Source: Pseudobacteroides sp.
GTDB lineage: Bacteria > Bacillota > Clostridia > Acetivibrionales > DSM-2933
Reading direction: 5' to 3'
Length of the DNA stretch: 64,000 nt
Assembly (NCBI GenBank): GCA_035370245.1
Contig: DAOOVO010000002.1
Span: forward strand, 1-64,000
Below are positions 5,992-23,459 of this stretch, one piece after another. A program made the position numbers and the translations under genes. Under the pieces are notes generated by a model. That model was not told where the DNA came from. It searched no databases and saw nothing but the letters and a program-made list of their open reading frames with translations. How positions within the stretch are numbered: position 1 is the stretch's first letter; every line of letters starts with the position of its first letter.

Positions 5992-6005
5992 AGGGGACAA
6001 CCCCT
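5992..6005. other. candidate oriT-associated inverted repeat (AGGGG-ACAA-CCCCT)
   Basis: perfect 5-bp IR ~125 bp upstream of mobC in the non-coding gap between mobC and the par genes; position typical of oriT. Confidence 0.25.
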
Positions 6006-6794: not shown

Positions 6795-6797
6795 AGA

Positions 6798-7772: not shown

Positions 7773-7874
7773 AAATACCTCTTTCTCCGGCAATCCGGGT
7801 GCCGGTCCCTTACATAATCTTTTCCTACTGTAAAAGGTGGCAGCCAAGCCACCACCTTCCATAAAAACAATTCA

Positions 7875-8255: not shown

Positions 8256-8264
8256 ATATTCTGC

Positions 8265-9155
8265 CTAACGATAGCAACGGAACTCATAGAACACTACACT
8301 GTTACCTTGATAAATTCCGGCACACTCAATGTAAAAAAAAGGTTCTACTTCCAGCACCATCATTCCAGCTATGTAATCTGCAATCTCTTCCTCACTGCAA
8401 AGCCTTTCCCCACTAATGGTGGAAGCAAGGTTTAGATTTGTTTCCACAAATACGGAATAGTAACCACAACCATCATAGGGATAATACTCGTTGTATTCTT
8501 CCTGCGTAATCTTCCCTTCTGCAAGCAACCTGTCCAGATTTTCGGGAAGTGTTATCATTCCTGCGGCTTTGCACTTCTCTACCGCAAGCCTAGCCACACG
8601 GTCTGCATCATATCCAACATACTCTGCCTCCGATATGTTGAAGGTAATCTCCAAAACCAGACTTCCGTCAGCAGGATTGCCTCTGTCATCTGTGGCAGGT
8701 GGGGTACCCTCTTCCGTAGCAGGGGCTTCTGTGGATGGTGCTGTCTGCTCCGGCGTGGTTGGTTGTGTTTCTGCCGGTGGTGTCGTAGGTTGAGTGGTAA
8801 CAGTTTCCGGTTCACTCGGAGCCTCTGTGGTTGATGACTCAACATCCACTTCCTTTGTATCATCATCTGTCGGTCCATTTGAAGTTGAAACTTCCACAAT
8901 AGAACCCTCTCCACTCTGCTCCTCAATCTCAGATGTTTCGACCTGCTCTGCCTCCACAGATGCATCAGAATTTCCTATTACATTAAACTCAGCTTCCAAA
9001 CTTACATCTGCTTCCAAATCCTCTATCTCATCCATTTCAGAACTCTCTACTTCTGAAACAACATTGCACACCACATCTTCTTTCTGTTTACCGGAACATC
9101 CCGAAACCATCAAAACACTCCACAACACCAACATAAACCATATTTTCTTTAACAT
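8265..9155 (-). CDS. lipoprotein with Thr/Pro/Glu-rich low-complexity linker
   Basis: signal peptide with lipobox 'LMVSGC'; long T/P/E-rich region; structured C-terminal domain. Confidence 0.6.
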   Translation of the reverse strand: MLKKIWFMLVLWSVLMVSGCSGKQKEDVVCNVVSEVESSEMDEIEDLEADVSLEAEFNVIGNSDASVEAEQVETSEIEEQSGEGSIVEVSTSNGPTDDDTKEVDVESSTTEAPSEPETVTTQPTTPPAETQPTTPEQTAPSTEAPATEEGTPPATDDRGNPADGSLVLEITFNISEAEYVGYDADRVARLAVEKCKAAGMITLPENLDRLLAEGKITQEEYNEYYPYDGCGYYSVFVETNLNLASTISGERLCSEEEIADYIAGMMVLEVEPFFYIECAGIYQGNSVVFYEFRCYR

Positions 9156-9636
9156 AGAAATCGCTCCCTTCTGATACTACTGTGGTACTGCCGCTTTTAC
9201 AAAAATCAGAAAGACCCTTGCCACCAGTACAAATAACAACAAAAACAACTTTGTTCCATAAAGAACTGCCTTTAAAATAAAAAGCACACTCTTCAAAAGA
9301 AACTTCACTACTGCAATTAAAATGCTTCCTAATCCCATACAGGACCTCCTTTCCGGGCATTTCCCCTACAAGTGACCAAACTTAAGGAAATGCCATCACT
9401 ACTTGCTCCAATGCAGCCACGCATCGAAAGGATAAAAAAATTCACCATCCCAAACCTGCTTCTTACCGAAGCCTAAGCTTAAGATGGTGTAGTCCATACC
9501 CATTCTTGGTTTCATATTCAGTTTTGCTGGTGCCTTTCTCCACCAATTTTACCGTAACTGATTAAAAAGATATATTTGGACTAACCTCTGAAACGCCCTA
9601 TTTATAAGGCTTTCTTAAGCTTGTCACTATTATATC

Positions 9637-9765
9637 TCAATCCCCAGTTTCCCAACGTGATACAGTTCTTCCGGAAACATTTAACTGTTCTGCTAATTGT
9701 TCCTGTGTAAGATTCTTTTCTTTTCGAAGCTCTTTAAGAAAGCTTCCGACTTTCTGCTGGTCCAT
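9637..9765 (-). CDS. XRE-family HTH protein, truncated (42 aa)
   Basis: 'LTQEQLAEQLNVSGRTVSRWETGD' HTH preceded by RBS GGAGGA; ends right after helix 3, so likely a truncated remnant. Confidence 0.45.
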   Translation of the reverse strand: MDQQKVGSFLKELRKEKNLTQEQLAEQLNVSGRTVSRWETGD

Positions 9766-10114
9766 TTGATTCCTCCTTTCATCAATAGATTAGTTTATTT
9801 CGTCCATAACAAACACGACACAAAGCGAGAAAATGTGTTTTTTTATATAGACACCTTTGTCTAATCCCTTATTATACACAATTATACACTAAAGTTTTAA
9901 AAATAATGAACATATTTTACACTACATGCTAACAGGAATGATAGTCTAATGCTATAACATGAGATACATATATAATAATAAATAATTACTACCCTTAATA
10001 TATTATTATTGATATAATTAAGATAGCATAGATTGATAAAATCATTCATTTATCAACTCCTATTTATACATAATTCATCACAACTCTTAACACGAAGGGA
10101 GGAAAACACTTGAT

Positions 10115-10855
10115 ATGGTCATTGTCTATTGGATAATTTTTATTGTGGGTGTACTGTACACTTTTGTATCCCTCATTATTAACGGAATCTCCGGAGCATT
10201 GCATATAGGACATGGTGACATTGGTGGACACGTTGACGTTGGTGGACATGTCGACGTTGGGCATGTTGATGTTGGGCATATTGATGCTGGTCATATTGAT
10301 GTTGGGCATGTCGATGTTGGCGGACATGTTGATGTTGGTCATAACCACTTGCATGTTGGAGACTTAGTTGGTCATTCGGTAGATGTAAATGGCAATACTC
10401 ATTCCGGACACCACGTTAGTACACATCATTCACTTTTTTCATGGTTTTCGGTATTAATCAACCCACTTGTTGCCGTATCATTTTTAACTGTATTTGGTGG
10501 AATCGGTATATTAGGTACTGAGTATTTTAAATGGACTGCCGTATTGGTATTTCTTATTGCATTAGCCCTGGGTGTAATTGTTTCATCCTTGCTTTACAGA
10601 TATGTAGCTATACCCTTATACAGATCCGAGAATTCCAGTGATGTATCAAGAAAGGATTTAATAGGTATTCCTGCTGAAGTAGTTTCCCCTATAATTAAAG
10701 ACGGGTTTGGTAAAATAAGATACGTTGTAAAAGATTTAAGGCATACAGCTCCGGCTAAGCATATTGAAGGTAAACCGGTGGAACAGGGAAAACGAGTAGT
10801 GATTTGCAAATTGGAGGACAGTATTTTTTACGTTTCAGAAGTTGAAGAAATTTAG
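10115..10855 (+). CDS. NfeD-family membrane protein with His-rich (G)HVDVG tandem repeats
   Basis: TM segments, C-terminal NfeD OB-fold region, immediately upstream of flotillin gene; N-terminal repeats GHVDVG/HIDAG x~9. Confidence 0.75.
   Translation: MVIVYWIIFIVGVLYTFVSLIINGISGALHIGHGDIGGHVDVGGHVDVGHVDVGHIDAGHIDVGHVDVGGHVDVGHNHLHVGDLVGHSVDVNGNTHSGHHVSTHHSLFSWFSVLINPLVAVSFLTVFGGIGILGTEYFKWTAVLVFLIALALGVIVSSLLYRYVAIPLYRSENSSDVSRKDLIGIPAEVVSPIIKDGFGKIRYVVKDLRHTAPAKHIEGKPVEQGKRVVICKLEDSIFYVSEVEEI
10215..10345 (+). repeat. in-frame 12/15-nt tandem repeats encoding His-rich (G)H(V/I)D(V/A)G units
   Basis: repeated 'catgttgatgttggg'-like units readable in sequence. Confidence 0.6.
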
Positions 10856-10916
10856 CAGTTGGATCAAGGAATAATTGGAATATAATTGAATTTATTTATG
10901 TAAAGGAGAGGATCAT

Positions 10917-12404
10917 ATGTCAGATTTTTCATTAATTCCAATAATACCCTTTCTAATAGTAGCTGTAGTTTTCATTTTAATATTCAGTCTTTTTTCAATG
11001 TATCGAAAAGTACCACAGGACAAAGCATTGGTAGTCACAGGATTTAGAGGTAGAAGAGTAATCACCGGCGGTGGTGGAATTGTTATACCTTTGTTGGAAA
11101 GAACAGATATTATTTCACTTGAAAATATGCAGATTGATATTCGTATTGACGGTGCATTGACATCCCAGGGTGTTGGTATTTTAGCTGACGGTGTTGCAGT
11201 TGTCAAAGTTAAATCCGATAAAGAGTCAATACTTTCAGCAGCCGAGCAGTTCAACACTTCAAAGGGTTTAGATCACATGCTGGCTGTTATATCCAAAACA
11301 ACTCAACAGGTTCTTGAAGGTAAACTTAGAGAAATCGTATCAAGAATGACTGTTGAGGAGATTTATAAAGACAGGGAAACATTTGCTTCACATGTTCAGG
11401 GAGTTGCAGCAACCGAGCTGGAGAATTTAGGACTTGAGTTAAAAGTTTTGACAATCAAGGATATAGCCGATAAAAACGGATATTTAGAAGCCCTTGGAAA
11501 ACCAAGAATTGCAGAAGTTAAAAGAGATGCTCAAATCGCTGAGGCTAATGCAACAAAAGAAACCAAAATTAAAACAGCTGAAGCAACCAGAGAAGGTGAA
11601 GCTGCCAGAATCCAGGCAGAAACCCAAATCGCTGAAGCTAACAGGGATAAAGAGCTCAAAGTACAATCCTATATAAAGGATCAACAGACCGCAAAAGCAG
11701 AAGCGGACTTGGCTTACGATATAAAAGCAAACATAGTTAAAAAAGATGTAGCTGAAACCGAGATGCAAGTTGAAATCGTAAGAAAACAAAAAGAAATTGA
11801 GCTTGCCGAACAAGAAGCCATCAGAAAAGAAAAAGAACTTGAAGCCACAGTTAAAAAACATGCTGATGCAGAAAATTACAAAGCTACAAAAATTGCTGAT
11901 GCAAACAGATATAAGCAAGTTGCTGAGGCTGAAGCAAGGGCACGTGCAATAGAAATAGAAGGTGAAGCTAAGGCTAAGGCAAAAAGGGCTGAAGGTATGG
12001 CCGAAGTTGAAATAATTAAAGCAAAAGGTGAAGCGGAAGCTTTAGCTATGGCTAAAAAAGCAGAAGCATTTAAAATGTACAACGATGCGGCTGTCACTCA
12101 GATGATAATTGAAAAATTGCCTGATATCGCTCAAGCAATTGCAAGTCCTTTGGCTAAGACCGAAAAGATTGTAATCGTTGATAACGGAAACGGCGACGGC
12201 AACGGAAAAGGAGCATCCAAGGTTACAGGATATGTAACCGATATAATGTCACAGCTTCCGGAAACAGTTAAGGCTCTCACAGGTTTGAATGTTCTGGATT
12301 TATTGAAGAAGGATTCTTCTAAAAAGGTACAGCCGGTAAGGGAAAGCGAAGCCAACTCCGACGATTCTCAATCTCTTGAAGAAGTTAGTGCAACTAAAGA
12401 ATAA
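10917..12404 (+). CDS. flotillin / SPFH (band 7) domain protein
   Basis: N-terminal TM, SPFH domain, long Ala/Glu-rich coiled-coil (EA repeats); strong RBS AAAGGAGAGG. Confidence 0.85.
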   Translation: MSDFSLIPIIPFLIVAVVFILIFSLFSMYRKVPQDKALVVTGFRGRRVITGGGGIVIPLLERTDIISLENMQIDIRIDGALTSQGVGILADGVAVVKVKSDKESILSAAEQFNTSKGLDHMLAVISKTTQQVLEGKLREIVSRMTVEEIYKDRETFASHVQGVAATELENLGLELKVLTIKDIADKNGYLEALGKPRIAEVKRDAQIAEANATKETKIKTAEATREGEAARIQAETQIAEANRDKELKVQSYIKDQQTAKAEADLAYDIKANIVKKDVAETEMQVEIVRKQKEIELAEQEAIRKEKELEATVKKHADAENYKATKIADANRYKQVAEAEARARAIEIEGEAKAKAKRAEGMAEVEIIKAKGEAEALAMAKKAEAFKMYNDAAVTQMIIEKLPDIAQAIASPLAKTEKIVIVDNGNGDGNGKGASKVTGYVTDIMSQLPETVKALTGLNVLDLLKKDSSKKVQPVRESEANSDDSQSLEEVSATKE

Positions 12405-12417
12405 TAAATAAAATGCT

Positions 12418-12460
12418 GTGGGCCCAAAGAAGCTAAATCAGTTTCCCGGGCCCACTTTTA
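12418..12460. terminator. bidirectional Rho-independent terminator between convergent flotillin gene and the 9-gene operon
   Basis: GTGGGCCC...GGGCCCAC stem followed by TTTTA. Confidence 0.6.
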
Positions 12461-12475
12461 ATTTGCCAAATTTCA

Positions 12476-13690
12476 TCAATATTTCCTATCACTCTTTTTC
12501 AACTTTTGTGCCAATTCGTTTAAGTCATTTCCCTTTAAAGCGCCTTCCAATAACTGAGGTAAAAGCGTTGGAGTGCAGGCAAAGCAAGGTATTCCGATAT
12601 GGGCCAGTCTTCTTGATAGCCCTCCATCATATGAAGGTATGCCTTTATCGGATAGAGCCAGAAGGCATATTACCTTGACTCCCGACTCATGCATCTCAGT
12701 TATCCTTCTTACAAGTGAAGCTTGATTGCCCCCTTCATAGAGGTCAGAGATCAATATAAAAAGAGTCTTTTTAGGATCTGTTATAAACTGGCTGCAATAT
12801 GCCACCGACTTGTTTATATCAGTACCCCCTCCCAACTGGATTCCAAAAAGCATATCCACAGGATCATTGCCGCATTGCTCTGTAAGATCCACCACCTCTG
12901 TATCAAAGGCAACTATTCTTGTGTTAAGTGCCGACATGCTTGAAAAAATGGAACCGGCTATGGATGCATATATGACCGACTCGGCCATGGAACCGCTCTG
13001 GTCAATATCCAATATGACATTCCATTGGTTTGAACGCTTTGCACGGTCAAAGAAATAAATCCTCTCGGGAATAATCTTATTATATTCCTTGTTATAGTTT
13101 TTGAGGTTACGGTTTATTGTGTACTTCCAATCTATACTTGAAGCACTTGGTATAGGTGAATGATTGCGTTTGTTTAATGCACCCGTTACAGCTTTCCTGA
13201 TGTCATTTTCCAGCCTCTTGTTTATATCCTCAACAACCGTTCTTACCAACTGCCTGGCAGTTTCCTTGGTCCTTTCAGGGATTTTTCCCTTTAATGCCAT
13301 AAGGGTAGCTACCATTTCTATATCAGGCTTTACATTCTTTAGAACCTCAGGTTCAAAAAGCAGCTGCTTCAAGCCCTTTCGCTCAATTGCATCAGTCTGA
13401 ATAACCGAAACAATATCCTCAGGGAAACAAGTTCTTATATCGGTAAGCCATTTTGCCAATTTAGGTGAGGAATGGCCTTTTCCTGCCGAACGTGAACCTT
13501 TAGACCCCTGACTTGCCAAGTCTCCTTCATCACCCGAAGTTTCATCATAAATTGAGGCTAAAGCTTCATCCATAATAAGCTCATCCTGGTCCAGACAAAT
13601 GCCTTCCTTTGAATATGTATCCAACATTTCACTGCCTTTTTCACCTAAAATCAGTCTCCATCGTTTAATAAGCTTTGTATCCATCATCAT
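12476..13690 (-). CDS. von Willebrand factor A (vWA) domain protein (YehP-like)
   Basis: MIDAS motif 'DIDQSGSM'; last gene of operon; overlaps upstream gene by 4 nt. Confidence 0.8.
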   Translation of the reverse strand: MMMDTKLIKRWRLILGEKGSEMLDTYSKEGICLDQDELIMDEALASIYDETSGDEGDLASQGSKGSRSAGKGHSSPKLAKWLTDIRTCFPEDIVSVIQTDAIERKGLKQLLFEPEVLKNVKPDIEMVATLMALKGKIPERTKETARQLVRTVVEDINKRLENDIRKAVTGALNKRNHSPIPSASSIDWKYTINRNLKNYNKEYNKIIPERIYFFDRAKRSNQWNVILDIDQSGSMAESVIYASIAGSIFSSMSALNTRIVAFDTEVVDLTEQCGNDPVDMLFGIQLGGGTDINKSVAYCSQFITDPKKTLFILISDLYEGGNQASLVRRITEMHESGVKVICLLALSDKGIPSYDGGLSRRLAHIGIPCFACTPTLLPQLLEGALKGNDLNELAQKLKKSDRKY

Positions 13691-15972
13691 ATATCTCCAA
13701 AATCAAATTCGTTAATATCTTCAAGCACTTTTTGTTCCTCTTCTTCAAGCTCCCTGTTTAAGATGTCGCTGGCTTCTTCGCCTCCAACACCCCATATCTC
13801 ACCTAATATTTCACAGACGTTTCTCTTTTCTGAAGGACCAAAGCTGCTGAAAGCCCTTCTTAAAAAGACAAGAGCACGTTTAAATCCATCATCCTCCAAA
13901 GATTCTACATAAAGAGATATCTGCTCCCATAAGGCAGTTCTTGCAAGGAGTGCATATTTATTCCTTAAAGACAATCCCTCAAACCAGCCTGCTCCAATAT
14001 CAGCTTCAATCCCGGGTGAAAGTCTTCTGGTAACCTCAGCGGAAAGTCGGTCGTTATCCATAAGATTTCTTTCGAGGAGTATGGAACAAGCATATCCTGA
14101 GAGCTTGGGGTTCCTGTCGTCAAGGCTTGCAAGCTTTTTAAGCTCTTCGAGCCATGTCTCTTCATTCACCAGATTATAATGTTCTAAAGAAATGGAGTTT
14201 AAACTGTTTATTGATTCAATTACACTCTTAGCCGCTTCGTTATCGCATCTTGCAGCTTCAACCAGCAGCAAGGCTCCACGCAAAAACAACTGGCTAAGAA
14301 GTGGAATAAAGTGGCTTGTATCAAACTTCCTTATGTCTCCATAACTTATAACAATTGCCAAATCTTTTGCTGCAGCTGCAATCTCATTAAAAGCTCCCGA
14401 ATCCACTGCAAGTCTTTGAAGCTCTTTCCTGGCCATTTCCATTGCATCGACCAGTCCGCACATGCATGCCTCCCTGATAACTGCGGAAGCTTCTTCAACC
14501 CTCTCGCATTTTTCCAGCATATCTTTTAATGCATAAGCTGAAGCAAGCTCTATAGTCTCTCCCTTTAGAGTAGACTCAACCAACTCAATTTCAGCCTCAG
14601 GTGTCCACCTTAAAGTCCAGGCTTCCGCCCATGTAGCTGACTGCTGAGCACGGGGCTTATATTTCTGAAAGCTCACTCCCAAAACCCTTAATCTATGCAG
14701 AAAGAATGACCGATTTAAATCAAGGTAGGCGGCATCCTTTGATTGCACCCTTCTGTTTTCCCTCAAGTCCAGCTCAATATCCATTGCAACGGCGGACCTG
14801 TATTTATCCAACTTAAGCCTTTTGAGCTCCCTGTAAAAATCATCCTGTATTGATGTTCTGCTCACCCCTTCAGGTAAAGAACCTATTCCAGTCCCAATCT
14901 CAATACGGGCAACCGCTTCCGAAACTGCAGACAGTTCACCATAACCAAGGCAAACAACAGCTGCATCCCTCAAATCCTTCAATACAGGCGCCGTTCCCCC
15001 TCTCATGGCTGACACTGCATTAGCAAGCCTCACTCCCTCAATGACTTCTGCCGATGAGCGATGAGTACCGCTTTCCCTCATGCTTCCTGCAATCCCTGAT
15101 AAATAGAGTGCCGGAAGTCGCTTTAGGTCATTTCTCCTCATACAGTTCCACATGTATTCAAAATACTGAGGTGCACTATTACCCGCACCATAGCCTGATC
15201 TGGAAGAAAGCTTGTAGTATGAGTAGGGCATAAGTGTCAGCTTGGTTTTTACCCTTGGAAGGCTTTCAAACTCTTCATCAGTCATTGGTGGCAATTCCGG
15301 TCCAAGCACTGAAGAATGGTAAGCCCCTGTTACTACAACCACTTTTTGGGCCGAATGGCCTTTATCTATAGTTTCCCTGATTTTCTTTCTCATATAGGCT
15401 TCCCTGACAAGATTCTGAGCCATATGGGATGGCGATTCTTTAGACAGCTCCCTTAAACCTTTTCCAAACTCATAGACTCCCAGCCTGTATGAATCCGTTG
15501 AAAGGTTATGCTCAAAGTTTCTCTCCCAGTATGATTCATGATCCTCTTCCCCTGCCGCTTCTGCCCATTTCTCATAAATACTTTCACCTTGAGGCTGTAC
15601 TTCACTGTCACCTATATCCCCTGTTCGCAGGTATTCGAGGGTTAAAAACACATCAGATGGCAAATCTATAAACTCTGCAAGAACACCGTTATTGTTTGCC
15701 CATACCAATGCCTGGTATTCAGGTGAATATTCAGCCATTGGGTATAAAAGGGTCTTTATTGGCAGCTCTTCGGTGTATGCAAGCACTGCAAAGGGCGGCT
15801 TAGTACCCGGTGCCGTAAAATATTCTATTTGGGAATTTGCATCCGAGAGGCCTTCAATCAATACTGCAGTGGGCTTCACTTCATCTAAAAATTTAAGAAG
15901 GTGATAAGCCCCGCCTGGAGACAAATGCCTTATACCGAAAAAATGAGGCGTGTATTTTTGCATTCTACACAT
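13687..15972 (-). CDS. large hypothetical protein (761 aa), YehM/DUF5682-like by size and position between MoxR ATPase and vWA genes
   Basis: operon position and length match E. coli yehM (assignment from memory, unverified); no catalytic motif recognised. Confidence 0.5.
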   Translation of the reverse strand: MCRMQKYTPHFFGIRHLSPGGAYHLLKFLDEVKPTAVLIEGLSDANSQIEYFTAPGTKPPFAVLAYTEELPIKTLLYPMAEYSPEYQALVWANNNGVLAEFIDLPSDVFLTLEYLRTGDIGDSEVQPQGESIYEKWAEAAGEEDHESYWERNFEHNLSTDSYRLGVYEFGKGLRELSKESPSHMAQNLVREAYMRKKIRETIDKGHSAQKVVVVTGAYHSSVLGPELPPMTDEEFESLPRVKTKLTLMPYSYYKLSSRSGYGAGNSAPQYFEYMWNCMRRNDLKRLPALYLSGIAGSMRESGTHRSSAEVIEGVRLANAVSAMRGGTAPVLKDLRDAAVVCLGYGELSAVSEAVARIEIGTGIGSLPEGVSRTSIQDDFYRELKRLKLDKYRSAVAMDIELDLRENRRVQSKDAAYLDLNRSFFLHRLRVLGVSFQKYKPRAQQSATWAEAWTLRWTPEAEIELVESTLKGETIELASAYALKDMLEKCERVEEASAVIREACMCGLVDAMEMARKELQRLAVDSGAFNEIAAAAKDLAIVISYGDIRKFDTSHFIPLLSQLFLRGALLLVEAARCDNEAAKSVIESINSLNSISLEHYNLVNEETWLEELKKLASLDDRNPKLSGYACSILLERNLMDNDRLSAEVTRRLSPGIEADIGAGWFEGLSLRNKYALLARTALWEQISLYVESLEDDGFKRALVFLRRAFSSFGPSEKRNVCEILGEIWGVGGEEASDILNRELEEEEQKVLEDINEFDFGDI

Positions 15973-17053
15973 TCAACTCCCTACATGCATTATAAAGGTC
16001 CCTCCACTCGGCTCCACGCCTTTTTAAAACATTATCTATATATTCACGCCATACAAGCTTATCCTTTTCCTCGTCCTTTACAACTGCTCCCTGCAGACCT
16101 GCAGCCAAATCATGGCTGGTTATACTGCCATCCCCAAAGCTTGCAGCAAGTGCCATGCTGTTTGCAAGCAATGAAATAGCTTCAGCTGTTGACATAACAC
16201 CACTTGGCGACTTTACTTTTTCCTTGTTGTCCAATGTACTGCCGGTCCTTAATTCCCTGAAAATAGTAACAATCTTTGCCACCGAATCCTCGGCAGGAAG
16301 GGCAGCTTGAAGCTCAAGATTCTCAGCTAATTCTCCCACCCTTTTCCTTACTATTTCAATTTCAGTATCTATGTCCCCCGGCGTTGGCAGGACAACTATG
16401 TTGAAACGTCTTTTTAGTGCCGCTGACATGTCATTTACGCCACGGTCTCTGGTATTGGCCGTTGCAATAAGATTAAATCCCCTTACAGCAGGTATTTCAA
16501 GCCCGAGCTCCGGCACGGATATTCTTTTTTCTGACAATATGGATATCAATGCATCCTGAACCTCCGATGCACATCTGGATATTTCCTCAAATCTTACAAT
16601 CCCGCCTTCCTCCATACACTTTAAAACAGGACTTTTTACAAGTGCCTCCATAGACGGGCCATTGGCAAGAAGCATTGCATAATTCCACGAATACCTTATG
16701 TGTTCCTCGGTTGTACCGGCTGTTCCCTGCACCACCTGGGTGGAATTTCCGTTAATCGCCGCTGCAAGATGTTCCGACAACCAGGACTTTGCCGTTCCTG
16801 GATCACCGATGAGCAAAAGTGCCCTGTCAGTCACAAGGGTAGATATTGCAATTTCTACCAATCTCTTGTTTCCTATATATTTAGGTATAATATCAACACC
16901 CTTAACCTTGCCTCCTGTTATGTATGTTAGTACCGACTGGGGAGACATTTTCCAGCCTGCAGGTATTCTGTTCTCTTCTGCTGAAATTAAAGCCTCTATT
17001 TCCTTTTCATACTGTATTTCAGCAGGTAACCTTAAAACACTATTATTTGACAT
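15965..17053 (-). CDS. MoxR-like AAA+ ATPase (AAA_5; YehL-like)
   Basis: Walker A 'GDPGTAKS', Walker B-like 'GIVRFEEISR', sensor/arginine-finger region typical of MoxR family. Confidence 0.8.
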   Translation of the reverse strand: MSNNSVLRLPAEIQYEKEIEALISAEENRIPAGWKMSPQSVLTYITGGKVKGVDIIPKYIGNKRLVEIAISTLVTDRALLLIGDPGTAKSWLSEHLAAAINGNSTQVVQGTAGTTEEHIRYSWNYAMLLANGPSMEALVKSPVLKCMEEGGIVRFEEISRCASEVQDALISILSEKRISVPELGLEIPAVRGFNLIATANTRDRGVNDMSAALKRRFNIVVLPTPGDIDTEIEIVRKRVGELAENLELQAALPAEDSVAKIVTIFRELRTGSTLDNKEKVKSPSGVMSTAEAISLLANSMALAASFGDGSITSHDLAAGLQGAVVKDEEKDKLVWREYIDNVLKRRGAEWRDLYNACRELNV

Positions 17054-17111
17054 ACATTATGCTCCTTCATTATTAATATATTTTCTTCAATATTATTGTC
17101 TTCGTAATAAT

Positions 17112-18995
17112 CTAAATTAACTTCTTCAAATATTCACCCGCTTCAATGAGCTTAAATGCACTATCATGATCGCATTTCTTTGCATATTCCAAAATAACAT
17201 CGGCATTTTCAGGGGGTAAAAGCTTTATCAATTCTGCAAGCTGATCAATGTAGTAACCAAGGTAGTACCTTTTGCTTTTTATATTAAAGTCCAACAATTC
17301 AATTACAACCTCTGCAGCTTTAGGATATCCCGCTTGTATAAGCCCCTTAACCTTAGGGATCGCTTTATATAAATCACGGCCGTTGTCCTTTTTAAGACAT
17401 TCGAGAAGATGATTTATCGTTACATCGTCTCCCCTGCTTGTTAGCAGAGCGGCAAGATCGCTTTCACCGACTTTAGACAATACAGGTGCCCACCTTGTAT
17501 CAACTGCTATACACCCCTTATCTATGCTGACCGGCTTAGTGTTGGTTGACGGATCAGCGGCCGATATAACCTTTACCGCATTTAAATTACAAAGTCTTCT
17601 TAAGCTACCGATAATGATTTTTGATTTGGCAGTATTTCCACCGGTCAAAAATCCTGAATATGTCTCAAACACCTGAGCCGGAGGCTTTATATATACGGCT
17701 GCTTCAAATGCATAATTTAAATAAAGGCCATTATGTTCATTTCCTGCCTCAGCAAGCAGTTCATAAGCATTCACAGTTCGCATTTTTAAAAGCAGTCCTG
17801 CAGCCATTTGGGCTAAAGTAGGATATTGTCCAAAATCTACATCCCGAAGCTTTATCCGGCTTAGCTCCCCGGTGTGCTCCATGCACTTTTTTAAGAACTG
17901 GAAAATACCCTCATCTTTTCTTCCTTCCATACATGAAAGCACATTATAAAAGTGCCCAACTTCCTGCTTATCAGCAGGTTCATCTTTTGGAGAGTCTCCC
18001 GATTTTAATACTGCAAGAATATTTTTTAAGCCAACTTCAGCTTCATTAAGAAGATAATTTACAATCTCCCTGGAAGGATTTACCTTCATAGTTTTCAGTA
18101 CTGCGGTCTTATCCTTTCCCTTGAATATTTCAATAAGCCTGTTTACAACTTTAGACGCATCTACAATCTCTGCCGCTTCTAAGGCAGCTTCTCTTATTTC
18201 CTTCTTCTTATCCTTTGTGAGTTCTATAAACATATCATCAAATTCGGGAAAATTCTTTAGTATTTTTATGGCACTGACTCTTACAGCGGTACTTCCCTTT
18301 TCGTTTGCCAGGAAAAACAGCTCTTTTTCTTCTTCTCCCGACAAATCCCAAATCAACTCAAGTATTCTGGCATCACCTTTTCCGCCTTCAAATGAAAAAT
18401 GTTTCCTTAATACCTTTGCAATACCCTTTCCATATCCTTTCAGTATTTCAAATGCCAGGTCGGCCACTTCATAATACTGCTCATTTAAAGCACTAATCAA
18501 AGGATATAAAAGCCTTAAATCACTAAATATCCCCTCTTTTTGAGCCTCACGAATTATTTCCAATCTTCCCTGTCCTTTATTAAGAAGGGCATTGGCCACA
18601 GGCTTGAGCCTTCTAAATGAAATATCGGTATTGACATCGAGGCATTCCGGTTCAATATCTTTGAAATCTCCTTTAATACCCGTTTCACCCTGAGTATACA
18701 GCACAGCATTTACAAGTCCTGCCAGCTCCAAAAGCTTGTCAGACGCTTTCCCATCCTGGGGCTCAATAAGGGCTTCAAGCATGCCGGAAATCCTAGCAAA
18801 AACAGGTGCAGTCTCACCGGCTTTCTTAAGCTGAGGTAAAAGCTTTTTAAGCCTAAAATCACCTATTGCAAGCTCCGAGCCTGCTATCATAAGTCTTCTG
18901 ACCTCACCTTGCAAATCATATAGTAACGAAATACTCATATTCTCACTCCATTTATACATATTTCCGGAATTCAGCAAAATCACATTAGAATCCAA
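17112..18995 (-). CDS. alpha-helical (HEAT/ARM-like) repeat protein, function unknown
   Basis: 627-aa ORF overlapping SWIM gene stop by 11 nt; helical-repeat character inferred from composition only. Confidence 0.45.
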   Translation of the reverse strand: MDSNVILLNSGNMYKWSENMSISLLYDLQGEVRRLMIAGSELAIGDFRLKKLLPQLKKAGETAPVFARISGMLEALIEPQDGKASDKLLELAGLVNAVLYTQGETGIKGDFKDIEPECLDVNTDISFRRLKPVANALLNKGQGRLEIIREAQKEGIFSDLRLLYPLISALNEQYYEVADLAFEILKGYGKGIAKVLRKHFSFEGGKGDARILELIWDLSGEEEKELFFLANEKGSTAVRVSAIKILKNFPEFDDMFIELTKDKKKEIREAALEAAEIVDASKVVNRLIEIFKGKDKTAVLKTMKVNPSREIVNYLLNEAEVGLKNILAVLKSGDSPKDEPADKQEVGHFYNVLSCMEGRKDEGIFQFLKKCMEHTGELSRIKLRDVDFGQYPTLAQMAAGLLLKMRTVNAYELLAEAGNEHNGLYLNYAFEAAVYIKPPAQVFETYSGFLTGGNTAKSKIIIGSLRRLCNLNAVKVISAADPSTNTKPVSIDKGCIAVDTRWAPVLSKVGESDLAALLTSRGDDVTINHLLECLKKDNGRDLYKAIPKVKGLIQAGYPKAAEVVIELLDFNIKSKRYYLGYYIDQLAELIKLLPPENADVILEYAKKCDHDSAFKLIEAGEYLKKLI

Positions 18996-20421
18996 GCCTT
19001 ATAATTCTGTTGTCCGTTATCAAACTGAGGGGAGCTGCAATCAATCTCCTCTTATCCATATCATGCCAAAACCTTAAAAGCATAACCTGATCCTTCAACA
19101 TTTGAGGTTTTAAAAGCTTTAATATGTTAATGCCTTCAGGCAAATACTCATTTTCCGGTTTTTCGAGAACCAGCCTTTGTCCTGCCTGATCTTCTATAAC
19201 AAACTCATCATCCACCATTCCAAACCTTGAGAATCTCAAAAGCATGACAGGTGATTTATCACTTAATGGATTTTTTATTTGATTTTTAATCAATTTGACA
19301 GCTTCAGAAAAGGATTCTTTTGCAAAGGATCTTATCTTTAGAAAATCTTCCAAGCATGCATCTCTCATATCGTTGTTTTCCCAACGCACCCTACAATTGA
19401 GATCTGTGGTAGGGTATGTGTAAAGTTCTTTTATCATCAGTACTTTTGAAACGGAATCATCTTCACGAATATATTTAACAGCTTTGAAGGGACGGAAATT
19501 GTATGTATTGTACACTTCACCGGAAATAAGGTTAAACCATATTCCGTTATCCACATATTCACCTCTAGGTATACTTGTGAATGACGTAAATGCAAGCTGT
19601 ATTAACTCAATATCGTTTTTGACAAGTCCCTGATTTTTAAGTTCATTAAGTTGCCACGTATAGCCAAGAGATTCCTCTATTGAGGAACTGGAATCAGGTG
19701 CTAAGTCACCCGATTCCAGCTTCTTTAAAAGATGCTCCTTCCCCTTTTTGCATAACGCATATAACCTGCTCAACAAATCCGAAGCATGGGTATAAACCTT
19801 CTCATGATTTTCATCTTCCGTAAAAAGGTATATAAACTCTCTCAAAGCTGCCTGAGAGCCCGAAAGATAATAATTTCCAAGCTGTTTTGCCTGATCTTCT
19901 AGAAGAGCAACAGTTTTCTTATTTATGGTTCCAAGGCCGTTTTGAACAATGCTGCAAATGAGCTTTTCTAAAATCTCAAGACCTTCAACCTGGGTTTTTA
20001 TTTTTTTCTTAAGTGCGGAAACGTTTACCTTCTTAGGCTCAGGCTGCTCCTGTTCTTTTTCCTTTTTCTTCTGTTCCTTTTTTTCAATCTTTTCACGCTT
20101 TTCCAAGATATCTTGAGGAACTTCCGCTTTTTCAAAGCTTTTGCCGCTTACATAGGCATACATAAGTCCTAATGCATGCTTGCACGGAAATTGCCTGCTA
20201 GGGCATGAACACCTGAAAACAGGACTTTCGGGCTTTATAAAGTCCGCAGATGTATTGTAATTGCTGCTTCCGCTTCCAGAACATTCACCGAAAATAATGG
20301 TCCCATCTTCCGATATGTTAAGCTTAACAAATTTGTTTTTCTTAACCAATCCCCACCCGTTCGTTACGGCACTCTGGTTAGGGGCTAACTGGTTTATATA
20401 TTCTTCGTTAATATTAATCAT
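18985..20421 (-). CDS. SWIM zinc-finger protein (YehQ-like)
   Basis: CxCxnCxH signature 'CSCPSRQFPCKH'; RBS AAGGCAGGG. Confidence 0.75.
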   Translation of the reverse strand: MININEEYINQLAPNQSAVTNGWGLVKKNKFVKLNISEDGTIIFGECSGSGSSNYNTSADFIKPESPVFRCSCPSRQFPCKHALGLMYAYVSGKSFEKAEVPQDILEKREKIEKKEQKKKEKEQEQPEPKKVNVSALKKKIKTQVEGLEILEKLICSIVQNGLGTINKKTVALLEDQAKQLGNYYLSGSQAALREFIYLFTEDENHEKVYTHASDLLSRLYALCKKGKEHLLKKLESGDLAPDSSSSIEESLGYTWQLNELKNQGLVKNDIELIQLAFTSFTSIPRGEYVDNGIWFNLISGEVYNTYNFRPFKAVKYIREDDSVSKVLMIKELYTYPTTDLNCRVRWENNDMRDACLEDFLKIRSFAKESFSEAVKLIKNQIKNPLSDKSPVMLLRFSRFGMVDDEFVIEDQAGQRLVLEKPENEYLPEGINILKLLKPQMLKDQVMLLRFWHDMDKRRLIAAPLSLITDNRIIRLGF

Positions 20422-20440
20422 AACAACCCTGCCTTTAATT

Positions 20441-21880
20441 TTATTCTACCTTAACCCAACCTTTTTTTATATTTTCCGTCATAAACTTATTGAGCAGCTC
20501 AAATATCTGCTCCCTGTTGTTTGATACCCTCATATCACGTTGAAGAGGTTCCTTCCTGTCTGAGCTGAAATTGGTATAATGCAGTACATATGCCGGGTAT
20601 CTGTCGTCAATCTCTTCCTTGTTTGTTTTCCAAACAACAAACTTCTGTACCATGAGCTTGCCCTTGCTCTCTTTTTTATAGACTTCCCTGAACTGAAGCT
20701 CGCTTTTAGGCAGCTCCGCTCCACTGTCTTCCTTCCCCAATTCAGGCAAATAAGTGACATCCGATAATTGTGAGAGTCTTAAGTTTTGCGGGTCAGCGGT
20801 TTTATCATGTCTTAATCTTACAAAAATGGGATAAATAAAGCTAATGCCTTTATTAAATGACTTGAGCTTATATTTTCCATCACTGATTTCAAGCATTGGG
20901 TTTGTTATTAATGTATTTCCCGATTCAAACAAAACATCATTGTAGCTTATTTCAATTATCGTTTCAGGTTTAACCATCCTGAATGCCACATGATTGGAAT
21001 CCGTTTCAATATAGTCGGAATCAATCACCATGTCCGACAGCTTAGAGAGTAATTCTTTTTTAAGCTCTTCACTAAAGCCGTTTCCTGTCTTTCCTACAAT
21101 CTGATACTCGTTATCTCCCGTCATAAGTGCAAGAAGCAGTGTCCTTATCTGGCCTTTACTGTCACCTACACCTTCAGTGTAGCCCACTATTACAACATCA
21201 ATATTATGCTTTGGCTTAATCTTATATACAAGGGGAAGATCTGATCTTACAACAAGACCTTCGGAGCAATCCTCCTCCACCCACTTTTTATATACATCCT
21301 TCAGCTCAGCTTTGGAAGCTGCCTCTTTATATGCTACAGGCTTTACATTAGCACCATCCTTAAATATTTCAGAAAGCTTTTCATGTATTTCATTGTAGCC
21401 CTTAACCTTTGGGGAGGCACCATCTATCTCAATAATATCAAAAGGTGCCAGTTTAAGCTTTCCTATTTCCGCCTCCTTTGCAAGTGTGGACAGCACATCA
21501 AAGACCCTTGTTCTGCCTTCGTCCTCGCAAAGATAAAGCTCGGCAGGAATTATTGCAGATGATATGCCTGCACTTTTTAAAAGCTTTCCGGCTTCCTCGG
21601 TACATGGAAGACCATATCTTAGAGTCCCGCCTGTATTAACAATAAAAGTGTCTTCGCCGTTGTAAAATATAACACTCATTTCACCGTCATATTTTCTTGT
21701 GATATAAAATTTCTCTCCTGCAACCCTGAAATCTATTTGCTCAGGGTTTATCGCTATAAAGTTTTTACATACATTTTTCTTGTAATCGGAAGCAACCTTT
21801 GCAGTTGCCTCATCAACTGCATTTACTGAACCCTCTAAATAGCCGTAGCTTTTATTGAGCTTGGATTTATCCAGTATCAT
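20441..21880 (-). CDS. ATP-dependent DNA ligase-like nucleotidyltransferase
   Basis: motif I 'RKYDGE' (KxDG), motif III 'PAELYL', motif IV 'EGLVVRS', motif V 'DVVIVGYTEGVGDSKGQIRTLLLA'. Confidence 0.65.
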   Translation of the reverse strand: MILDKSKLNKSYGYLEGSVNAVDEATAKVASDYKKNVCKNFIAINPEQIDFRVAGEKFYITRKYDGEMSVIFYNGEDTFIVNTGGTLRYGLPCTEEAGKLLKSAGISSAIIPAELYLCEDEGRTRVFDVLSTLAKEAEIGKLKLAPFDIIEIDGASPKVKGYNEIHEKLSEIFKDGANVKPVAYKEAASKAELKDVYKKWVEEDCSEGLVVRSDLPLVYKIKPKHNIDVVIVGYTEGVGDSKGQIRTLLLALMTGDNEYQIVGKTGNGFSEELKKELLSKLSDMVIDSDYIETDSNHVAFRMVKPETIIEISYNDVLFESGNTLITNPMLEISDGKYKLKSFNKGISFIYPIFVRLRHDKTADPQNLRLSQLSDVTYLPELGKEDSGAELPKSELQFREVYKKESKGKLMVQKFVVWKTNKEEIDDRYPAYVLHYTNFSSDRKEPLQRDMRVSNNREQIFELLNKFMTENIKKGWVKVE

Positions 21881-21882
21881 AC

Positions 21883-22578
21883 CTATACCCCCTTAAGTTC
21901 CATGTTTGTGAGATGGAGTATGAGGCAATACTTATCTCCATCAATCCGACCTTCTAAAAATCCCCTGTAAGGCACTCCTCCAGTTGTAAGAACAACAGGA
22001 TCGATACCCTTCTTTCCTCCTCCAACAAACATGAGGGAGTTGGACTCATGAAGGCTCTTTGCCATATCATACAGATAATCATATGTAAGACCGTTAACAT
22101 GCTTTATCTGATATTTTCTTGTAAAAACGAATTTTCTTATTGCCTGTTCCTTTGGAAACTTTTTACCCGTCCATTGAAGGGGAATTTCTCCCAATATATT
22201 GGCTTCCGTCTTTGAAAGATCCCTTCTCAATTTCTCGGTACCGTCAGGGTTCTTTACAACTTCAACAAGATTAACCCTGTATACTATTTTATTGTCCTTG
22301 CCTATGTATAATTTCTTTGTCCCGCTTACAAATCTGCCTGTCCTTTCCATATCTATTTCGGGATCGCCTTTAATAATCTCTTCCCCAAGTTTCACAAGGT
22401 CTCCGTATTTTTCTACAAGATACTCCTCACTTATTTCCAAAAGACCTTTTAATATCTTCACAGTTTTCTTTGGAGACCCATCCTTCAGCACATAATTTAT
22501 TTTGCTTTTTCTAGGAGTATTGTCCATGCCGACTACAGCGTCTCTCTTTTTCTCGTTAGATATATTTAATGACCTCAT
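21883..22578 (-). CDS. hypothetical protein (231 aa), second gene of operon
   Basis: ORF 3 bp upstream of ligase-like gene; no family recognised. Confidence 0.45.
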   Translation of the reverse strand: MRSLNISNEKKRDAVVGMDNTPRKSKINYVLKDGSPKKTVKILKGLLEISEEYLVEKYGDLVKLGEEIIKGDPEIDMERTGRFVSGTKKLYIGKDNKIVYRVNLVEVVKNPDGTEKLRRDLSKTEANILGEIPLQWTGKKFPKEQAIRKFVFTRKYQIKHVNGLTYDYLYDMAKSLHESNSLMFVGGGKKGIDPVVLTTGGVPYRGFLEGRIDGDKYCLILHLTNMELKGV

Positions 22579-22592
22579 ATATTAAGTCCTCC

Positions 22593-23204
22593 TCACATCA
22601 TACTAAAGTCGATATCCAGTTCTTCGGAGAATTCTTCGTCCTCTTCCACCGCATCCAAATAGCCGGCTTGTTCAAGGCCTATAAAGGCAAACTCGCAAGG
22701 CGACCCCACCAGAACAAATGCTTTTCCGTCATTTTGGAGTATGAATGCCTGACTGCTCTCATATCCGTCACGATAATTGAATGAAAATGTATATATTTTA
22801 TCTGATATTTCTTTAATAAAATCTGGATTTTCGTCTGCTCCACAAAGTTCATAAACTGTAGTTATCTGGTAGTCTAAAAACTCTTCTACTGTCACTGTTT
22901 CCGCCAACTCGATTACACCGGAAAAACTTGATGGAATAAGAGTTGCAGGATTGCCGTCACTATCTACTGCAACAAGTTCAGACCTTTCTACCCATTCATT
23001 TGACTGGTTTAAAATCCCTAGTCCTATGCAGCCTTTCGGAATTATGGCCGTACCTGATTCATCAACGCTAACCAGCTTGCATTCATTTCCGTCATCATCC
23101 AATGCAACAGTCTCCGTCCATCCATAAATCTTCTTTCTATCCACCTTATCTGGAGAGAATGAATATACACTGTCTCCCAGTTTAAACTGAAGTTCCCTTG
23201 CCAT
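22593..23204 (-). CDS. acidic hypothetical protein (203 aa), first gene of operon
   Basis: ORF 15 bp upstream of next gene; preceded by ~250-bp AT-rich promoter region. Confidence 0.45.
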   Translation of the reverse strand: MARELQFKLGDSVYSFSPDKVDRKKIYGWTETVALDDDGNECKLVSVDESGTAIIPKGCIGLGILNQSNEWVERSELVAVDSDGNPATLIPSSFSGVIELAETVTVEEFLDYQITTVYELCGADENPDFIKEISDKIYTFSFNYRDGYESSQAFILQNDGKAFVLVGSPCEFAFIGLEQAGYLDAVEEDEEFSEELDIDFSMM

Positions 23205-23373
23205 TACTTGGCCCCCTTTAATCTCGCATGATATATATTATTTTAGCAGTATGAACTGCAGTCTGTAAATAAGAGGTAGAGGAATTTACCCTTGACAATA
23301 CCTTTTACAAGACTGGTATAATTATATATAAATTTATTCATTATTCATGCATATTAAATGCGATAAATCTTTT

Positions 23374-23413
23374 ACAGTTATCTTCTGCTAATTGTATGAT
23401 TAAGAACGTATTT
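23374..23413. promoter_or_regulatory. conserved palindromic promoter/operator-like motif, copy 3 (ACAGTTA-TCTTCTGC-TAATTGT-ATGATTAAGAACGTATTT)
   Basis: one of three near-identical ~40-bp elements in the window; divergent region between 9-gene operon and arsC-like gene. Confidence 0.4.
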
Positions 23414-23459
23414 AATATACATATAAATCTATTAATTTTTCATACAGGAAAGGAAATTT

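Follow-up and report, generated by a model that had tools for sequence, protein, structure and literature searches.

The locus examined here raises the question of whether a DNA ligase gene, two neighbouring genes described as unknowns and a MoxR-type AAA+ ATPase/vWA gene set form one system or several. It lies on the minus strand of the window, a 64,000-nt stretch of Pseudobacteroides sp. DNA (contig DAOOVO010000002.1). A preliminary description had read it as a single nine-gene system, in which the ligase and the two unknowns were joined to a Yeh-type system as known from Escherichia coli. The reading preferred here, with a probability of roughly 0.64, is a composite operon of an NHEJ-like Ku-ligase cassette (module A, g1-g3) and a YehLMP-like module (module B, g4-g8), which would be co-transcribed and whose cooperation would be optional.

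Extent and transcription signals of the cluster

The cluster at 12476-23204 comprises eight co-directional ORFs (Table 1) and its limits agree exactly with those reported before; the nine genes announced in the title of the preliminary description were at variance with its own list and with the sequence, which both give eight. From g1 through g8 the intergenic distances are +14, +2, +19, -11, +58, -8 and -4 nt, in agreement with the earlier range of 0-59 bp gaps or overlaps. The ORF of g5 opens with TTG; its more probable start is an ATG some 36 nt farther downstream. The promoter region, described before as AT-rich and about 250 bp long, was recovered as a spacer of 255 bp with 26.7 % GC (23205-23459). 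It contains the top minus-strand match of the promoter scan, and both hexamers are kept in the homologous spacer of a relative, locus L034. At the other end a terminator had been placed at 12418-12460, where a hairpin with stems at 12455-12448 and 12425-12418 and a T-rich tail were seen. This hairpin was not listed by the automatic scan because of its long loop, and it is common to the cluster and the convergent flotillin gene. Terminators were not found at any gene boundary within the cluster, and the ligase-to-SWIM gap of 19 nt carries a ribosome-binding site (GGCAGGG) before g4. With one strong promoter-like site and one terminal hairpin for the whole cluster, these sequence signals indicate that all eight genes almost certainly constitute a single transcription unit in this genome, as had been proposed.

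Table 1. Features of the gene cluster, with positions in the window
Feature	Position	Strand	Description	Domain match
g1	22593..23204	-	203-aa Ku-fold protein, predicted; disordered acidic C-terminal tail	
g2	21883..22578	-	231-aa Ku-fold protein, predicted; second, better conserved Ku-like subunit	
g3	20441..21880	-	479-aa minimal ATP-dependent DNA ligase	Pfam DNA_ligase_A_M + DNA_ligase_A_C
g4	18985..20421	-	478-aa SWIM zinc-finger protein, opens the MoxR/vWA module	Pfam SWIM E 1.7e-5
g5	17112..18995	-	HEAT-like helical-repeat protein, ~615-627 aa	Pfam HEAT_2 E 6e-6
g6	15965..17053	-	362-aa MoxR-type AAA+ ATPase, YehL homologue	Pfam AAA_5 E 9e-38
g7	13687..15972	-	761-aa DUF5682 protein, YehM homologue	Pfam DUF5682 E 1e-138
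g8	12476..13690	-	404-aa CoxE-type vWA protein, YehP homologue	Pfam VWA_CoxE E 1e-47
Promoter-like site	23240..23269	-	TTTACA, 18-nt spacer, extended -10 TG-TAAAAT; 5' of g1	
Terminator-like hairpin	12405..12455	-	GTGGGCCC...GGGCCCAC, then T-rich tail; read directly from the sequence	

Separate distribution of the two modules

Another 20 loci have the genes in the order g1-g2-ligase, spaced by about 0-110 nt. Clostridia, Planctomycetota, one betaproteobacterium and Treponema were identified as hosts, and the source names of homologues point to Bacteroidales and others in addition. About 20 cassette loci from several phyla have no MoxR, vWA, DUF5682 or SWIM gene in the sequence covered, which extends at most 10 kb to either side, thus the two unknowns belong with the ligase and not, as assumed earlier, with the Yeh-type system. 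Locus L034 is flanked, like the cluster in the window, by ArsC, flotillin (89 % identity) and NfeD-like genes, but has the cassette only, the five genes of module B being absent. The five-gene module without a ligase was present in several metagenomic lineages as well as in Deinococcus, Rhizobium and Fusobacterium; of this module, E. coli has retained the MoxR-DUF5682-vWA core. The fusion of cassette and module is kept in Pseudobacteroides and one further, more distant Clostridial lineage; the loci that show it are L005, L006 and L035. Conserved synteny of the whole cluster holds within one Clostridial clade, where the eight-gene order is kept, and not outside of it. Judged by its gene neighbourhoods, the cluster consists of two operons that are conserved separately and have been joined in one lineage of Clostridia; a single nine-gene system is not supported.

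All eight genes may nevertheless form one system, in which MoxR and the MIDAS-bearing vWA protein, targeted by g4, g5 and g7, would remodel the Ku-like ring or the ligase, or strip it from the DNA after joining. A ring that stays caught on the DNA after repair has to be removed actively. Analogues are p97, an AAA+ protein that extracts Ku80 in eukaryotes, and the AAA_5 protein Rea1, which removes factors in a MIDAS-dependent manner; eukaryotic Ku subunits even carry vWA domains. The colinear fusion, with ligase-to-SWIM gaps of 12-68 nt, persists from the window as far as L035, whose ligase is 66 % identical to that of the window, and modules A and B diverge in step across L005, L006 and L035. 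A second arrangement was observed in Limnoglobus, where the SWIM operon and an MMPL-g2-ligase string point away from each other, their starts 84 nt apart; two unrelated juxtapositions of uncommon operons are, by a rough and informal estimate, improbable by chance. However, the Limnoglobus adjacency is looser, as an unrelated transporter gene intervenes and g1 is missing. In most lineages one module occurs without the other nearby, L034 does without module B between the same flanks, and E. coli has the Yeh genes without a Ku. A single integrated system of all eight genes is considered rather unlikely. Since cassette and five-gene module are found apart, cooperation is possible, but facultative.

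The ligase and the putative Ku-like proteins

The domain content and motifs of g3 are those of a bona fide ATP-dependent DNA ligase, as had been recognized before. The protein has adenylation and OB domains only, plus a C-terminal domain of some 90 aa that is basic and conserved; POL or PE domains are not present. All six ligase motifs are invariant in 38 sequences (K63-x-D65-G66, E114, E207-G208, K220/K222, R355/R357/D359/K360). PDB profile matches were obtained to archaeal ligases, LIG1 and LIG4 (E 1e-17 to 1e-9), and the best NCBIfam match was the NHEJ ligase domain, below the cutoff. The C-terminal domain had no PDB, Pfam or WGR support; its retention in loci without g1 argues against a sole role as receptor of the g1 tail.

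For g1 and g2 the structure predictions, themselves of moderate confidence, suggest a Ku fold. The monomer models have pLDDT values of 65 and 78, and Foldseek alignments to Ku reach TM-scores of about 0.4 with a high rmsd over the arms. The Pfam Ku model did not match either protein, thus a sequence-level link was not obtained, and a similarity between g1 and g2 was not detectable. The tail of g1 ends in a conserved motif, (I/L)DFSM(M/F). Limnoglobus and Akkermansia loci keep g2 and the ligase, but have no g1, hence a heterodimer is not universal; in four Limnoglobus loci, only the ligase is present. With both unknowns predicted to adopt a Ku fold, the DNA-directed activity surmised earlier gains weight.

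The likeness to Ku may alternatively reflect a shared barrel. In that case g1 and g2 would be SPOC-like beta-barrel adaptors and the ligase would work in another pathway, for instance in RNA repair or in sealing nicks during excision repair. SPOC-type barrels score almost equally on the core, the putative ring-forming segments are low-confidence parts in both, some ligase homologues have faint RNA_ligase Pfam matches, and the missing Pfam Ku match fits this explanation as well. Against it, Ku chains came first in every structure search with about 45 residues more aligned than for SPOC domains, the strict pairing with an ATP-dependent DNA ligase is a classic Ku signature, motif VI of the ligase (RxRxDK) is typical of DNA ligases, and some family members carry basic tails of the DNA-binding type, with PAAKK repeats. 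SPOC-like adaptors are therefore regarded as improbable, and the Ku fold is kept as the preferred assignment.

Bacterial two-component NHEJ systems (Bacillus subtilis YkoV/YkoU, Mycobacterium tuberculosis Ku/LigD) likewise are chromosomal and have a Ku-fold gene beside an ATP-dependent ligase with all catalytic motifs; the lysine-rich, histone-H1-like tails of some family members are similar to the long C-terminal extensions of Ku from actinobacteria. In contrast to the Ku homodimer with LigD, the cassette has two different Ku-like genes, neither matching Pfam Ku and one with an acidic instead of a basic tail, and its ligase has the novel C-terminal domain and no polymerase or phosphoesterase domain. 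A pair of different Ku-like subunits, probably co-transcribed and suggestive of a heterodimer, is a feature shared with eukaryotic Ku70-Ku80 and with Ku3-Ku4 of Sinorhizobium meliloti, for which genetic evidence for a heterodimer was presented, the only earlier bacterial proposal found (PMC6379672). Ku3 and Ku4, as paralogues, both belong to the canonical Pfam Ku family, whereas g1 and g2 are unrecognisable by sequence and mutually dissimilar; compared to Ku70/Ku80, they are without a fused vWA or SAP domain. Archaeal NHEJ is encoded by separate genes, for example Ku, Lig, Pol and PE in Methanocella paludicola. The stand-alone ligase beside Ku-like genes resembles this organization rather than the multidomain LigD, but in all loci examined no polymerase or phosphoesterase gene is located beside the cassette.

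The YehLMP-like module and the proposed function

Pfam searches bore out the domain calls for ligase, SWIM, helical-repeat, MoxR AAA+ and vWA proteins, the HEAT_2 score of g5 falling just below the gathering score. Of two domains of unknown function expected in the cluster, DUF5682 was present in g7 and DUF4132 was not found in any of the proteins. The E. coli protein lengths given earlier (362/759/378 aa) were verified in NC_000913.3, and the core resemblance proved real: YehL, YehM and YehP are true homologues of g6 (40 % identity, full length), g7 (24 %, about 745 aligned columns) and g8 (34 %). Across phyla g6 is conserved with 66-81 % identity. Its Walker A motif, GDPGTAKS, was read directly from the sequence, as was the intact MIDAS of g8 (DxSxS...T...D; DIDQSGS, GGGTD, ISDLYEGG). 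In g7 an N-terminal Tiki/TraB-like region (GxxH...E...GxxH) precedes a helical domain; a weak match to the Tiki-superfamily ChaN model was obtained (E 0.023), the motifs GIRH, IEG and GAYH are common to g7 and YehM, and the PDB search yielded no relative.

The yehLMPQ gene order is mirrored in part only: MoxR-DUF5682-vWA is conserved, but the SWIM gene is at the opposite end of the module. In E. coli it lies 3' of the core, and YehQ resembles g4 solely in the zinc finger. Further counterparts are the SWIM-DUF5691-AAA-DUF5682-VWA operons annotated in Deinococcus and Rhizobium; like E. coli yehLMP, they encode MoxR, DUF5682 and vWA proteins homologous to those of module B, in the same order and of near-equal lengths. 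As in these units, the SWIM protein belongs to the module, and g4 is homologous to the SWIM protein heading the Deinococcus module (hhalign 98.9 %). The HEAT-like g5 occupies the position of DUF5691, but had no BLAST similarity to the Deinococcus DUF5691 protein, YehI or YehQ. It is kept after the SWIM gene in L005, L006, L016, L019, L022-L025, L027, L028, L030, L035 and L044. Unlike the E. coli, Deinococcus and Rhizobium units, the module stands behind a Ku-ligase cassette only here and in a few relatives.

An AAA_5-type ATPase with a MIDAS vWA partner is likewise found in CoxD/CoxE, RavA/ViaA, CbbQ/CbbO, NorQ/NorD and Rea1/Midasin. The vWA domain of g8 is of the CoxE Pfam type, and the mechanism expected is that of the CoxD/CoxE group, an ATP-driven remodelling of a MIDAS-captured client. 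In contrast to these systems, no metalloenzyme or other known client gene is nearby, and three dedicated proteins of module B (DUF5682, SWIM and HEAT-like) come in addition and are missing from CoxD/CoxE-type systems. MoxR-vWA pairs also are the cores of multi-gene units predicted to be NTP-dependent conflict systems, in a paper that names neither SWIM, YehL nor ligases (Kaur et al. 2020, PMC7159879). That ligase and Ku-like proteins act on invading DNA in an anti-phage or anti-plasmid system, the anti-mobile-element function suggested earlier, is very unlikely despite a weak bpMoxR Pfam match (29.5 bits, cutoff 27), PHROG families matching the vWA and DUF5682 proteins and a DUF5682 gene on one unannotated 'Bacteriophage sp.' contig, for PADLOC gave no meaningful matches on the cluster, the defining third components (VMAP, inactive STAND, FtsH, beta-propeller) and effector domains were not found, the flanking genes have housekeeping or metabolic roles both in this genome and in its relatives, the Ku-like gene was absent from phage, plasmid and viral collections, and the base composition is uniform across the cluster.

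In the composite operon favoured here, module A would represent a divergent, previously unannotated NHEJ-like DNA end-joining cassette. Its two unrelated-looking Ku-fold proteins would most likely assemble into a ring-shaped complex, possibly a heterodimer, which binds DNA ends, holds the broken ends and recruits the adjacent minimal ligase to seal them. Since polymerase and nuclease domains are missing from module A, joining would be limited to ends that can be ligated directly. Candidate docking elements are the acidic tail motif of g1 and the basic C-terminal domain of the ligase. Module B (12476-20421) would be a YehLMP-like machine, in which a MoxR AAA+ hexamer and a MIDAS vWA adaptor remodel, driven by ATP, a client held by the DUF5682, SWIM and HEAT-like proteins; the DUF5682 protein may contribute its Tiki/TraB-like region and a helical scaffold. 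Module B is located directly 3' of module A in Pseudobacteroides and in a related lineage of Clostridia, where both would be transcribed together from the promoter 5' of g1, and a functional cooperation of both modules, possibly facultative, may take place.

Layout of the eight-gene cluster

The preliminary description counted nine genes in a single operon; the sequence gives eight minus-strand open reading frames, whose lengths in order (203, 231, 479, 478, 627, 362, 761 and 404 aa) are those listed in that description. They are named g1 to g8 here: g1 and g2, two putative Ku-fold proteins, and the ligase g3 make up the cassette, and g4 (SWIM protein), g5 (HEAT-like), g6 (MoxR-type AAA+ ATPase), g7 (DUF5682) and g8 (vWA) the five-gene module. 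The domain calls made earlier from the sequence alone were borne out by Pfam, with matches to ATP-dependent DNA ligase, SWIM, HEAT_2 (just below threshold), AAA_5, DUF5682 (E 1e-138) and VWA_CoxE (E 1e-47). Apart from the gene count, the observation thus essentially stood. The intergenic distances from g1 to g8 are +14, +2, +19, -11, +58, -8 and -4 nt; the 19 nt between the ligase stop and the SWIM start contain a ribosome-binding site, and the base composition is even throughout the cluster. The spacer upstream of g1 has a GC content of 26.7 % and contains a promoter-like site, a terminator-like hairpin follows g8 (see table), and terminator-like sites coincided with none of the internal gene boundaries. 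An Rfam scan of the whole window gave no family at or over its threshold.

Outside the cluster, beyond the flotillin and NfeD-like genes, a block of higher GC content (0.44 vs 0.38 for the window) resembles an integrated element, mobilisable or derived from a plasmid. The host is a Pseudobacteroides species, since NCBI gives that name to a protein identical to g2. The dockerin of a GH9 cellulase elsewhere in the window fits a cellulosome-producing Pseudobacteroides host.

Coordinates of features in the window and in loci sampled for comparison
Feature	Sequence	Coordinates	Strand	Remark
Cluster g1-g8	window	12476-23204	minus	eight open reading frames
Promoter-like site	window	23269-23240	minus	best minus-strand match of the region
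GC-rich hairpin with T-rich tail	window	12455-12405		3' of the last gene, g8
Higher-GC block	window	4000-9200		outside the cluster
MobA/VirD2-type relaxase	window	4406-5521		in higher-GC block
ParM/actin-like segregation protein	window	6798-7862		in higher-GC block
AvrD-like protein	window	41-949 or 38041-39699 (pair, listed first)		side gene
GH9 cellulase with dockerin	window	41-949 or 38041-39699 (pair, listed second)		
1575-aa helicase-nuclease-like protein	window	33238-37965		
1663-aa helicase-nuclease	L041	13623-18614		2 kb from a Ku-ligase cassette, beside a PC4-domain protein
Split g2	L021	7824-8463		56-nt deletion, at ~22105-22161 of the window
yehLMPQ and preceding genes	L001 (E. coli K-12)	6475-13912		
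Two successive ~620-aa HEAT-like genes	L023	11447-15228		between SWIM and MoxR
Two successive ~620-aa HEAT-like genes	L024	4860-8686		between SWIM and MoxR

Fold and distribution of the g1-g2-ligase cassette

Neither g1 nor g2 had any match in Pfam, NCBIfam or PHROGs, and the Ku model PF02735 did not match either protein in Pfam searches with E-values up to 5. For g2, a PDB profile search found no Ku and merely chance uS7 matches, PADLOC returned one chance-level match (Cas7b model, E 0.004), and in a large representative search all of the best 150 matches listed were members of its own family. Sequence similarity was detectable neither between g1 and g2 nor between these proteins and Ku; as recognisable paralogues g1 and g2 were rejected by profile-profile comparison. 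Their structures were predicted as monomers after alignment of homologues, and both models show a putative Ku-core beta-barrel with extended arms. With the g1 model (pLDDT 78) the best 50 Foldseek matches were all Ku chains, the top one with an E-value of 1e-4; the TM-scores are modest (~0.4), values to be expected when a protein whose arms take shape only on dimerisation is modelled as a monomer. The g2 model has a pLDDT of 65 overall and of 75-90 over the C-terminal half, and SPOC barrels, which have only the barrel in common with Ku, align with it over ~100-108 residues. We estimate a probability of roughly three in four for the joint reading that g1 and g2 are Ku-fold proteins and that the cassette is an end-joining unit.

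At its C-terminus g1 has an acidic, disordered tail, whose last residues are a conserved (I/L)DFSM(M/F). The g2-type family comprises 2135 clusters at 90 % identity and 578 at 50 %, with source names including Clostridia, Bacteroidales, Treponema and Planctomycetota. Basic tails of the PAAKK type typify the extended C-termini of actinobacterial Ku. Long proline/alanine/lysine repeats of this kind, assigned by Pfam to the histone-H1-like HC2 family, occur in some distant g2 relatives (P0400, P0409 and P0361 were noted), one of these three having a SAM domain instead; the family has thus gained different C-terminal appendages. On a same-species metagenomic contig (L021; 97.7-100 % protein identity over the eight genes) a deletion splits g2 into two open reading frames; the contig is misassembled at this point or represents a naturally occurring knockout.

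The ligase carries all of the nucleotidyltransferase motifs I, III, IIIa, IV and V and motif VI of the OB domain. In an alignment of 38 family members with identities of 38-81 %, the residues K63-x-D65-G66, E114, F147, E207-G208, K220/K222 and R355-x-R357-x-D359-K360 are invariant. In the PDB, the family profile found archaeal DNA ligases as well as human LIG1 and LIG4. Adenylation and OB domains were the only ones detected by Pfam in g3, and LigD-type NCBIfam models stayed far under their cutoffs and covered the ligase domain alone; hence the enzyme is not a LigD. [quoted passage not shown] Neither these nor an N-terminal DNA-binding domain was found in the cassette ligase. A basic C-terminal domain of ~90 aa is kept throughout the family, and PDB profile and Pfam searches (28 members) revealed no relatives of it. 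A WGR domain had been considered for its KKGW ending, resembling the KKGY of WGR, and because E. coli YehF is a WGR protein; the candidate was rejected for want of support, with an hhalign probability of 1.7 % against YehF, no relevant match in the PDB profile search and no Pfam match.

The tight order g1-g2-ligase was found in 20 further loci by ligase-anchored sampling. The hosts include Clostridia, Planctomycetota (Pirellulales, Fimbriiglobus), a betaproteobacterium and Treponema; by name, homologues are further attributed to Bacteroidales, Azoarcus, Peptococcaceae and others. Directly upstream of the ligase lies g2, in the window and at each of the 24 other loci that have it, and the cassette is flanked by ordinary genes, different at each locus. 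Akkermansia and some Limnoglobus loci have g2 and ligase without g1, and in four Limnoglobus loci the ligase is the only cassette gene, so the requirement for partners differs by lineage. The ligases accompanied by g2 alone or by no partner (L014, L015, L018 and L020 of Limnoglobus, L017 of Akkermansia) retain the C-terminal domain. At one locus (L041) a large helicase-nuclease is encoded near the cassette, which may be a coincidence; a similar protein of the window combines DUF4011, an SF1 helicase (AAA_11/AAA_12), an MTES_1575/DUF559 endonuclease and DUF3320.

The Yeh-type module and its association with the cassette

To our knowledge, no function is known for the Yeh-type operons, though they are present even in E. 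coli K-12. The protein lengths given beforehand for that organism proved correct (YehL 362, YehM 759 and YehP 378 aa; YehQ has 614 aa), and g6, g7 and g8 are 40 %, 24 % and 34 % identical to YehL, YehM and YehP. The order MoxR AAA_5, DUF5682, CoxE-type vWA recurs in seven sampled loci (L001, L023, L024, L035, L040, L043 and L044). A Walker A motif in the g6 ATPase and a complete MIDAS motif in the g8 vWA protein can be read from the sequence. A GxxH...E...R-E...GxxH pattern common to g7 and YehM, together with a weak match to a Tiki-superfamily model, suggests that the DUF5682 protein consists of a helical scaffold bearing a head that resembles a hydrolase. Orthology of g4 and YehQ found no support, the zinc finger being the only part that aligns; g4 is clearly homologous to the SWIM protein encoded in the module of Deinococcus (hhalign 98.9 %). 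For g5, relatedness to DUF4132/YehI, YehQ or DUF5691 was discarded in the absence of BLAST similarity.

SWIM-anchored loci and annotated records revealed that SWIM, HEAT-like or DUF5691, MoxR, DUF5682 and vWA genes, in this order, form an operon of their own in Deinococcus, Rhizobium, Fusobacterium and several metagenomic lineages, and a ligase was not present in these stand-alone operons. An alternative partner cassette 5' of the SWIM gene was also considered and dismissed; unrelated housekeeping or metabolic genes occupy that position in other module loci. One metagenomic lineage has two HEAT-like genes in place of one (L023, L024). E. coli keeps the MoxR-DUF5682-vWA core, but a different SWIM protein follows it, and yehLMPQ is preceded there by yehF (annotated PF05406, a WGR protein), the pseudogene yehH and yehI (DUF4132). 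Counterparts of these three genes were found neither in the window nor in the Deinococcus and Rhizobium modules.

A single system of ligase, unknowns and Yeh core, as proposed initially, is not supported, since the cassette and the five-gene module each occur alone: about 20 cassette loci contain no MoxR, vWA, DUF5682 or SWIM gene within up to 10 kb per side. The eight-gene synteny itself recurs in P. cellulosolvens (78-96 % identity), a related MAG and L035, a more distant cellulolytic Clostridial contig, and in most sampled loci the modules lie apart; the idea of one new nine-gene system was only partly right. The most telling comparison is with L034. At this locus the ligase (73 % identical) is followed directly by the convergent flotillin gene, without the module, and the locus has the promoter hexamers of the window and the same flanks (ArsC-family gene 76 %, flotillin 89 %, NfeD-like gene 61 % identity); thus the five genes represent a clean insertion or deletion. 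L035 has a ligase 66 % identical to that of the window and the closest module outside Pseudobacteroides (SWIM 57 %, MoxR 81 %, DUF5682 66 %, vWA 76 %), a pattern that would fit a long shared inheritance, the module having been lost in L007, L034, L008 and L036. In Limnoglobus (Planctomycetota), a SWIM operon is divergent from a string of MMPL transporter, g2 and ligase, with 84 nt between the starts. As a rough argument rather than a formal test, chance is an unlikely source of two unrelated juxtapositions of two uncommon operons. The two modules are very probably separable. Since separation is the majority pattern, any cooperation would be facultative, and a direct functional coupling appears unlikely.

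The suggested role against mobile elements was not substantiated: the best PADLOC match (E 5.7e-4) is generic for AAA proteins, and the neighbours are housekeeping genes without a defence island. PHROG matches were confined to proteins of the five-gene module, in families of unknown function. Carriage of the cassette by mobile elements was discarded as well, g2 being absent from viral contigs, phage records and plasmid records. The cluster does not belong to the MoxR-vWA ternary conflict systems described by Kaur et al. 2020 (PMC7159879); the eight proteins contain no VMAP, inactive STAND, FtsH, beta-propeller or effector domain, and a marginal bpMoxR match on the g6 ATPase is the sole trace of such systems.

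Proposed mechanism and significance

By analogy with Ku/LigD and the separate-gene archaeal NHEJ, the Ku-fold proteins would attach to DNA ends and bridge them for sealing by the ligase. The presence of two dissimilar, probably co-transcribed Ku-like genes suggests that the modelled proteins g1 and g2 form a heterodimer. Heterodimeric Ku has so far been a eukaryotic hallmark. For bacteria it was proposed solely by genetics, for Ku3-Ku4 of S. meliloti (PMC6379672). The acidic tail of g1 and the basic domain of the ligase are candidate contact elements; their pairing is only a guess, because the ligase keeps its C-terminal domain in loci without g1.

MoxR-vWA pairs are established as ATP-driven remodellers of a client caught via the MIDAS site (PMC7159879), and this is the mechanism that we adopt for the five-gene module, which would remodel a captured client at the expense of ATP. 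In the fused arrangement the client might be the Ku-like ring or the ligase, either of them on DNA after end joining; the module would then be a bacterial counterpart of the p97-driven removal of Ku. We regard it as improbable that the Yeh-like MoxR/vWA/DUF5682/SWIM machine is a DNA-associated protein-extraction device, unloading a topologically trapped Ku-like ring or recycling the ligase, with the cassette as a second, eukaryote-like (heterodimeric) bacterial Ku lineage.

What emerges above all is a large Ku-like/ligase family without annotation, fused in this lineage to a Yeh-type MoxR-vWA module. The cassette would be a variant of NHEJ; the module joined to it was already known but uncharacterised. 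The Pfam Ku model served to identify Ku in at least one survey of end joining in bacteria (PMC11936186). Since the Ku-like family lies outside this model, Pfam-based surveys are blind to it, and end joining may be undercounted. If the cassette joins ends, the spread of NHEJ-like repair in bacteria has been underestimated, Ku made of two subunits would cease to be essentially a eukaryotic trait, and a compact three-gene unit with a small ligase would be open to genome-engineering tests. As to what Yeh-type operons act on, the fusion offers a first hypothesis that is concrete and testable, and protein extraction, if true, would be the first function for these long-uncharacterised operons.
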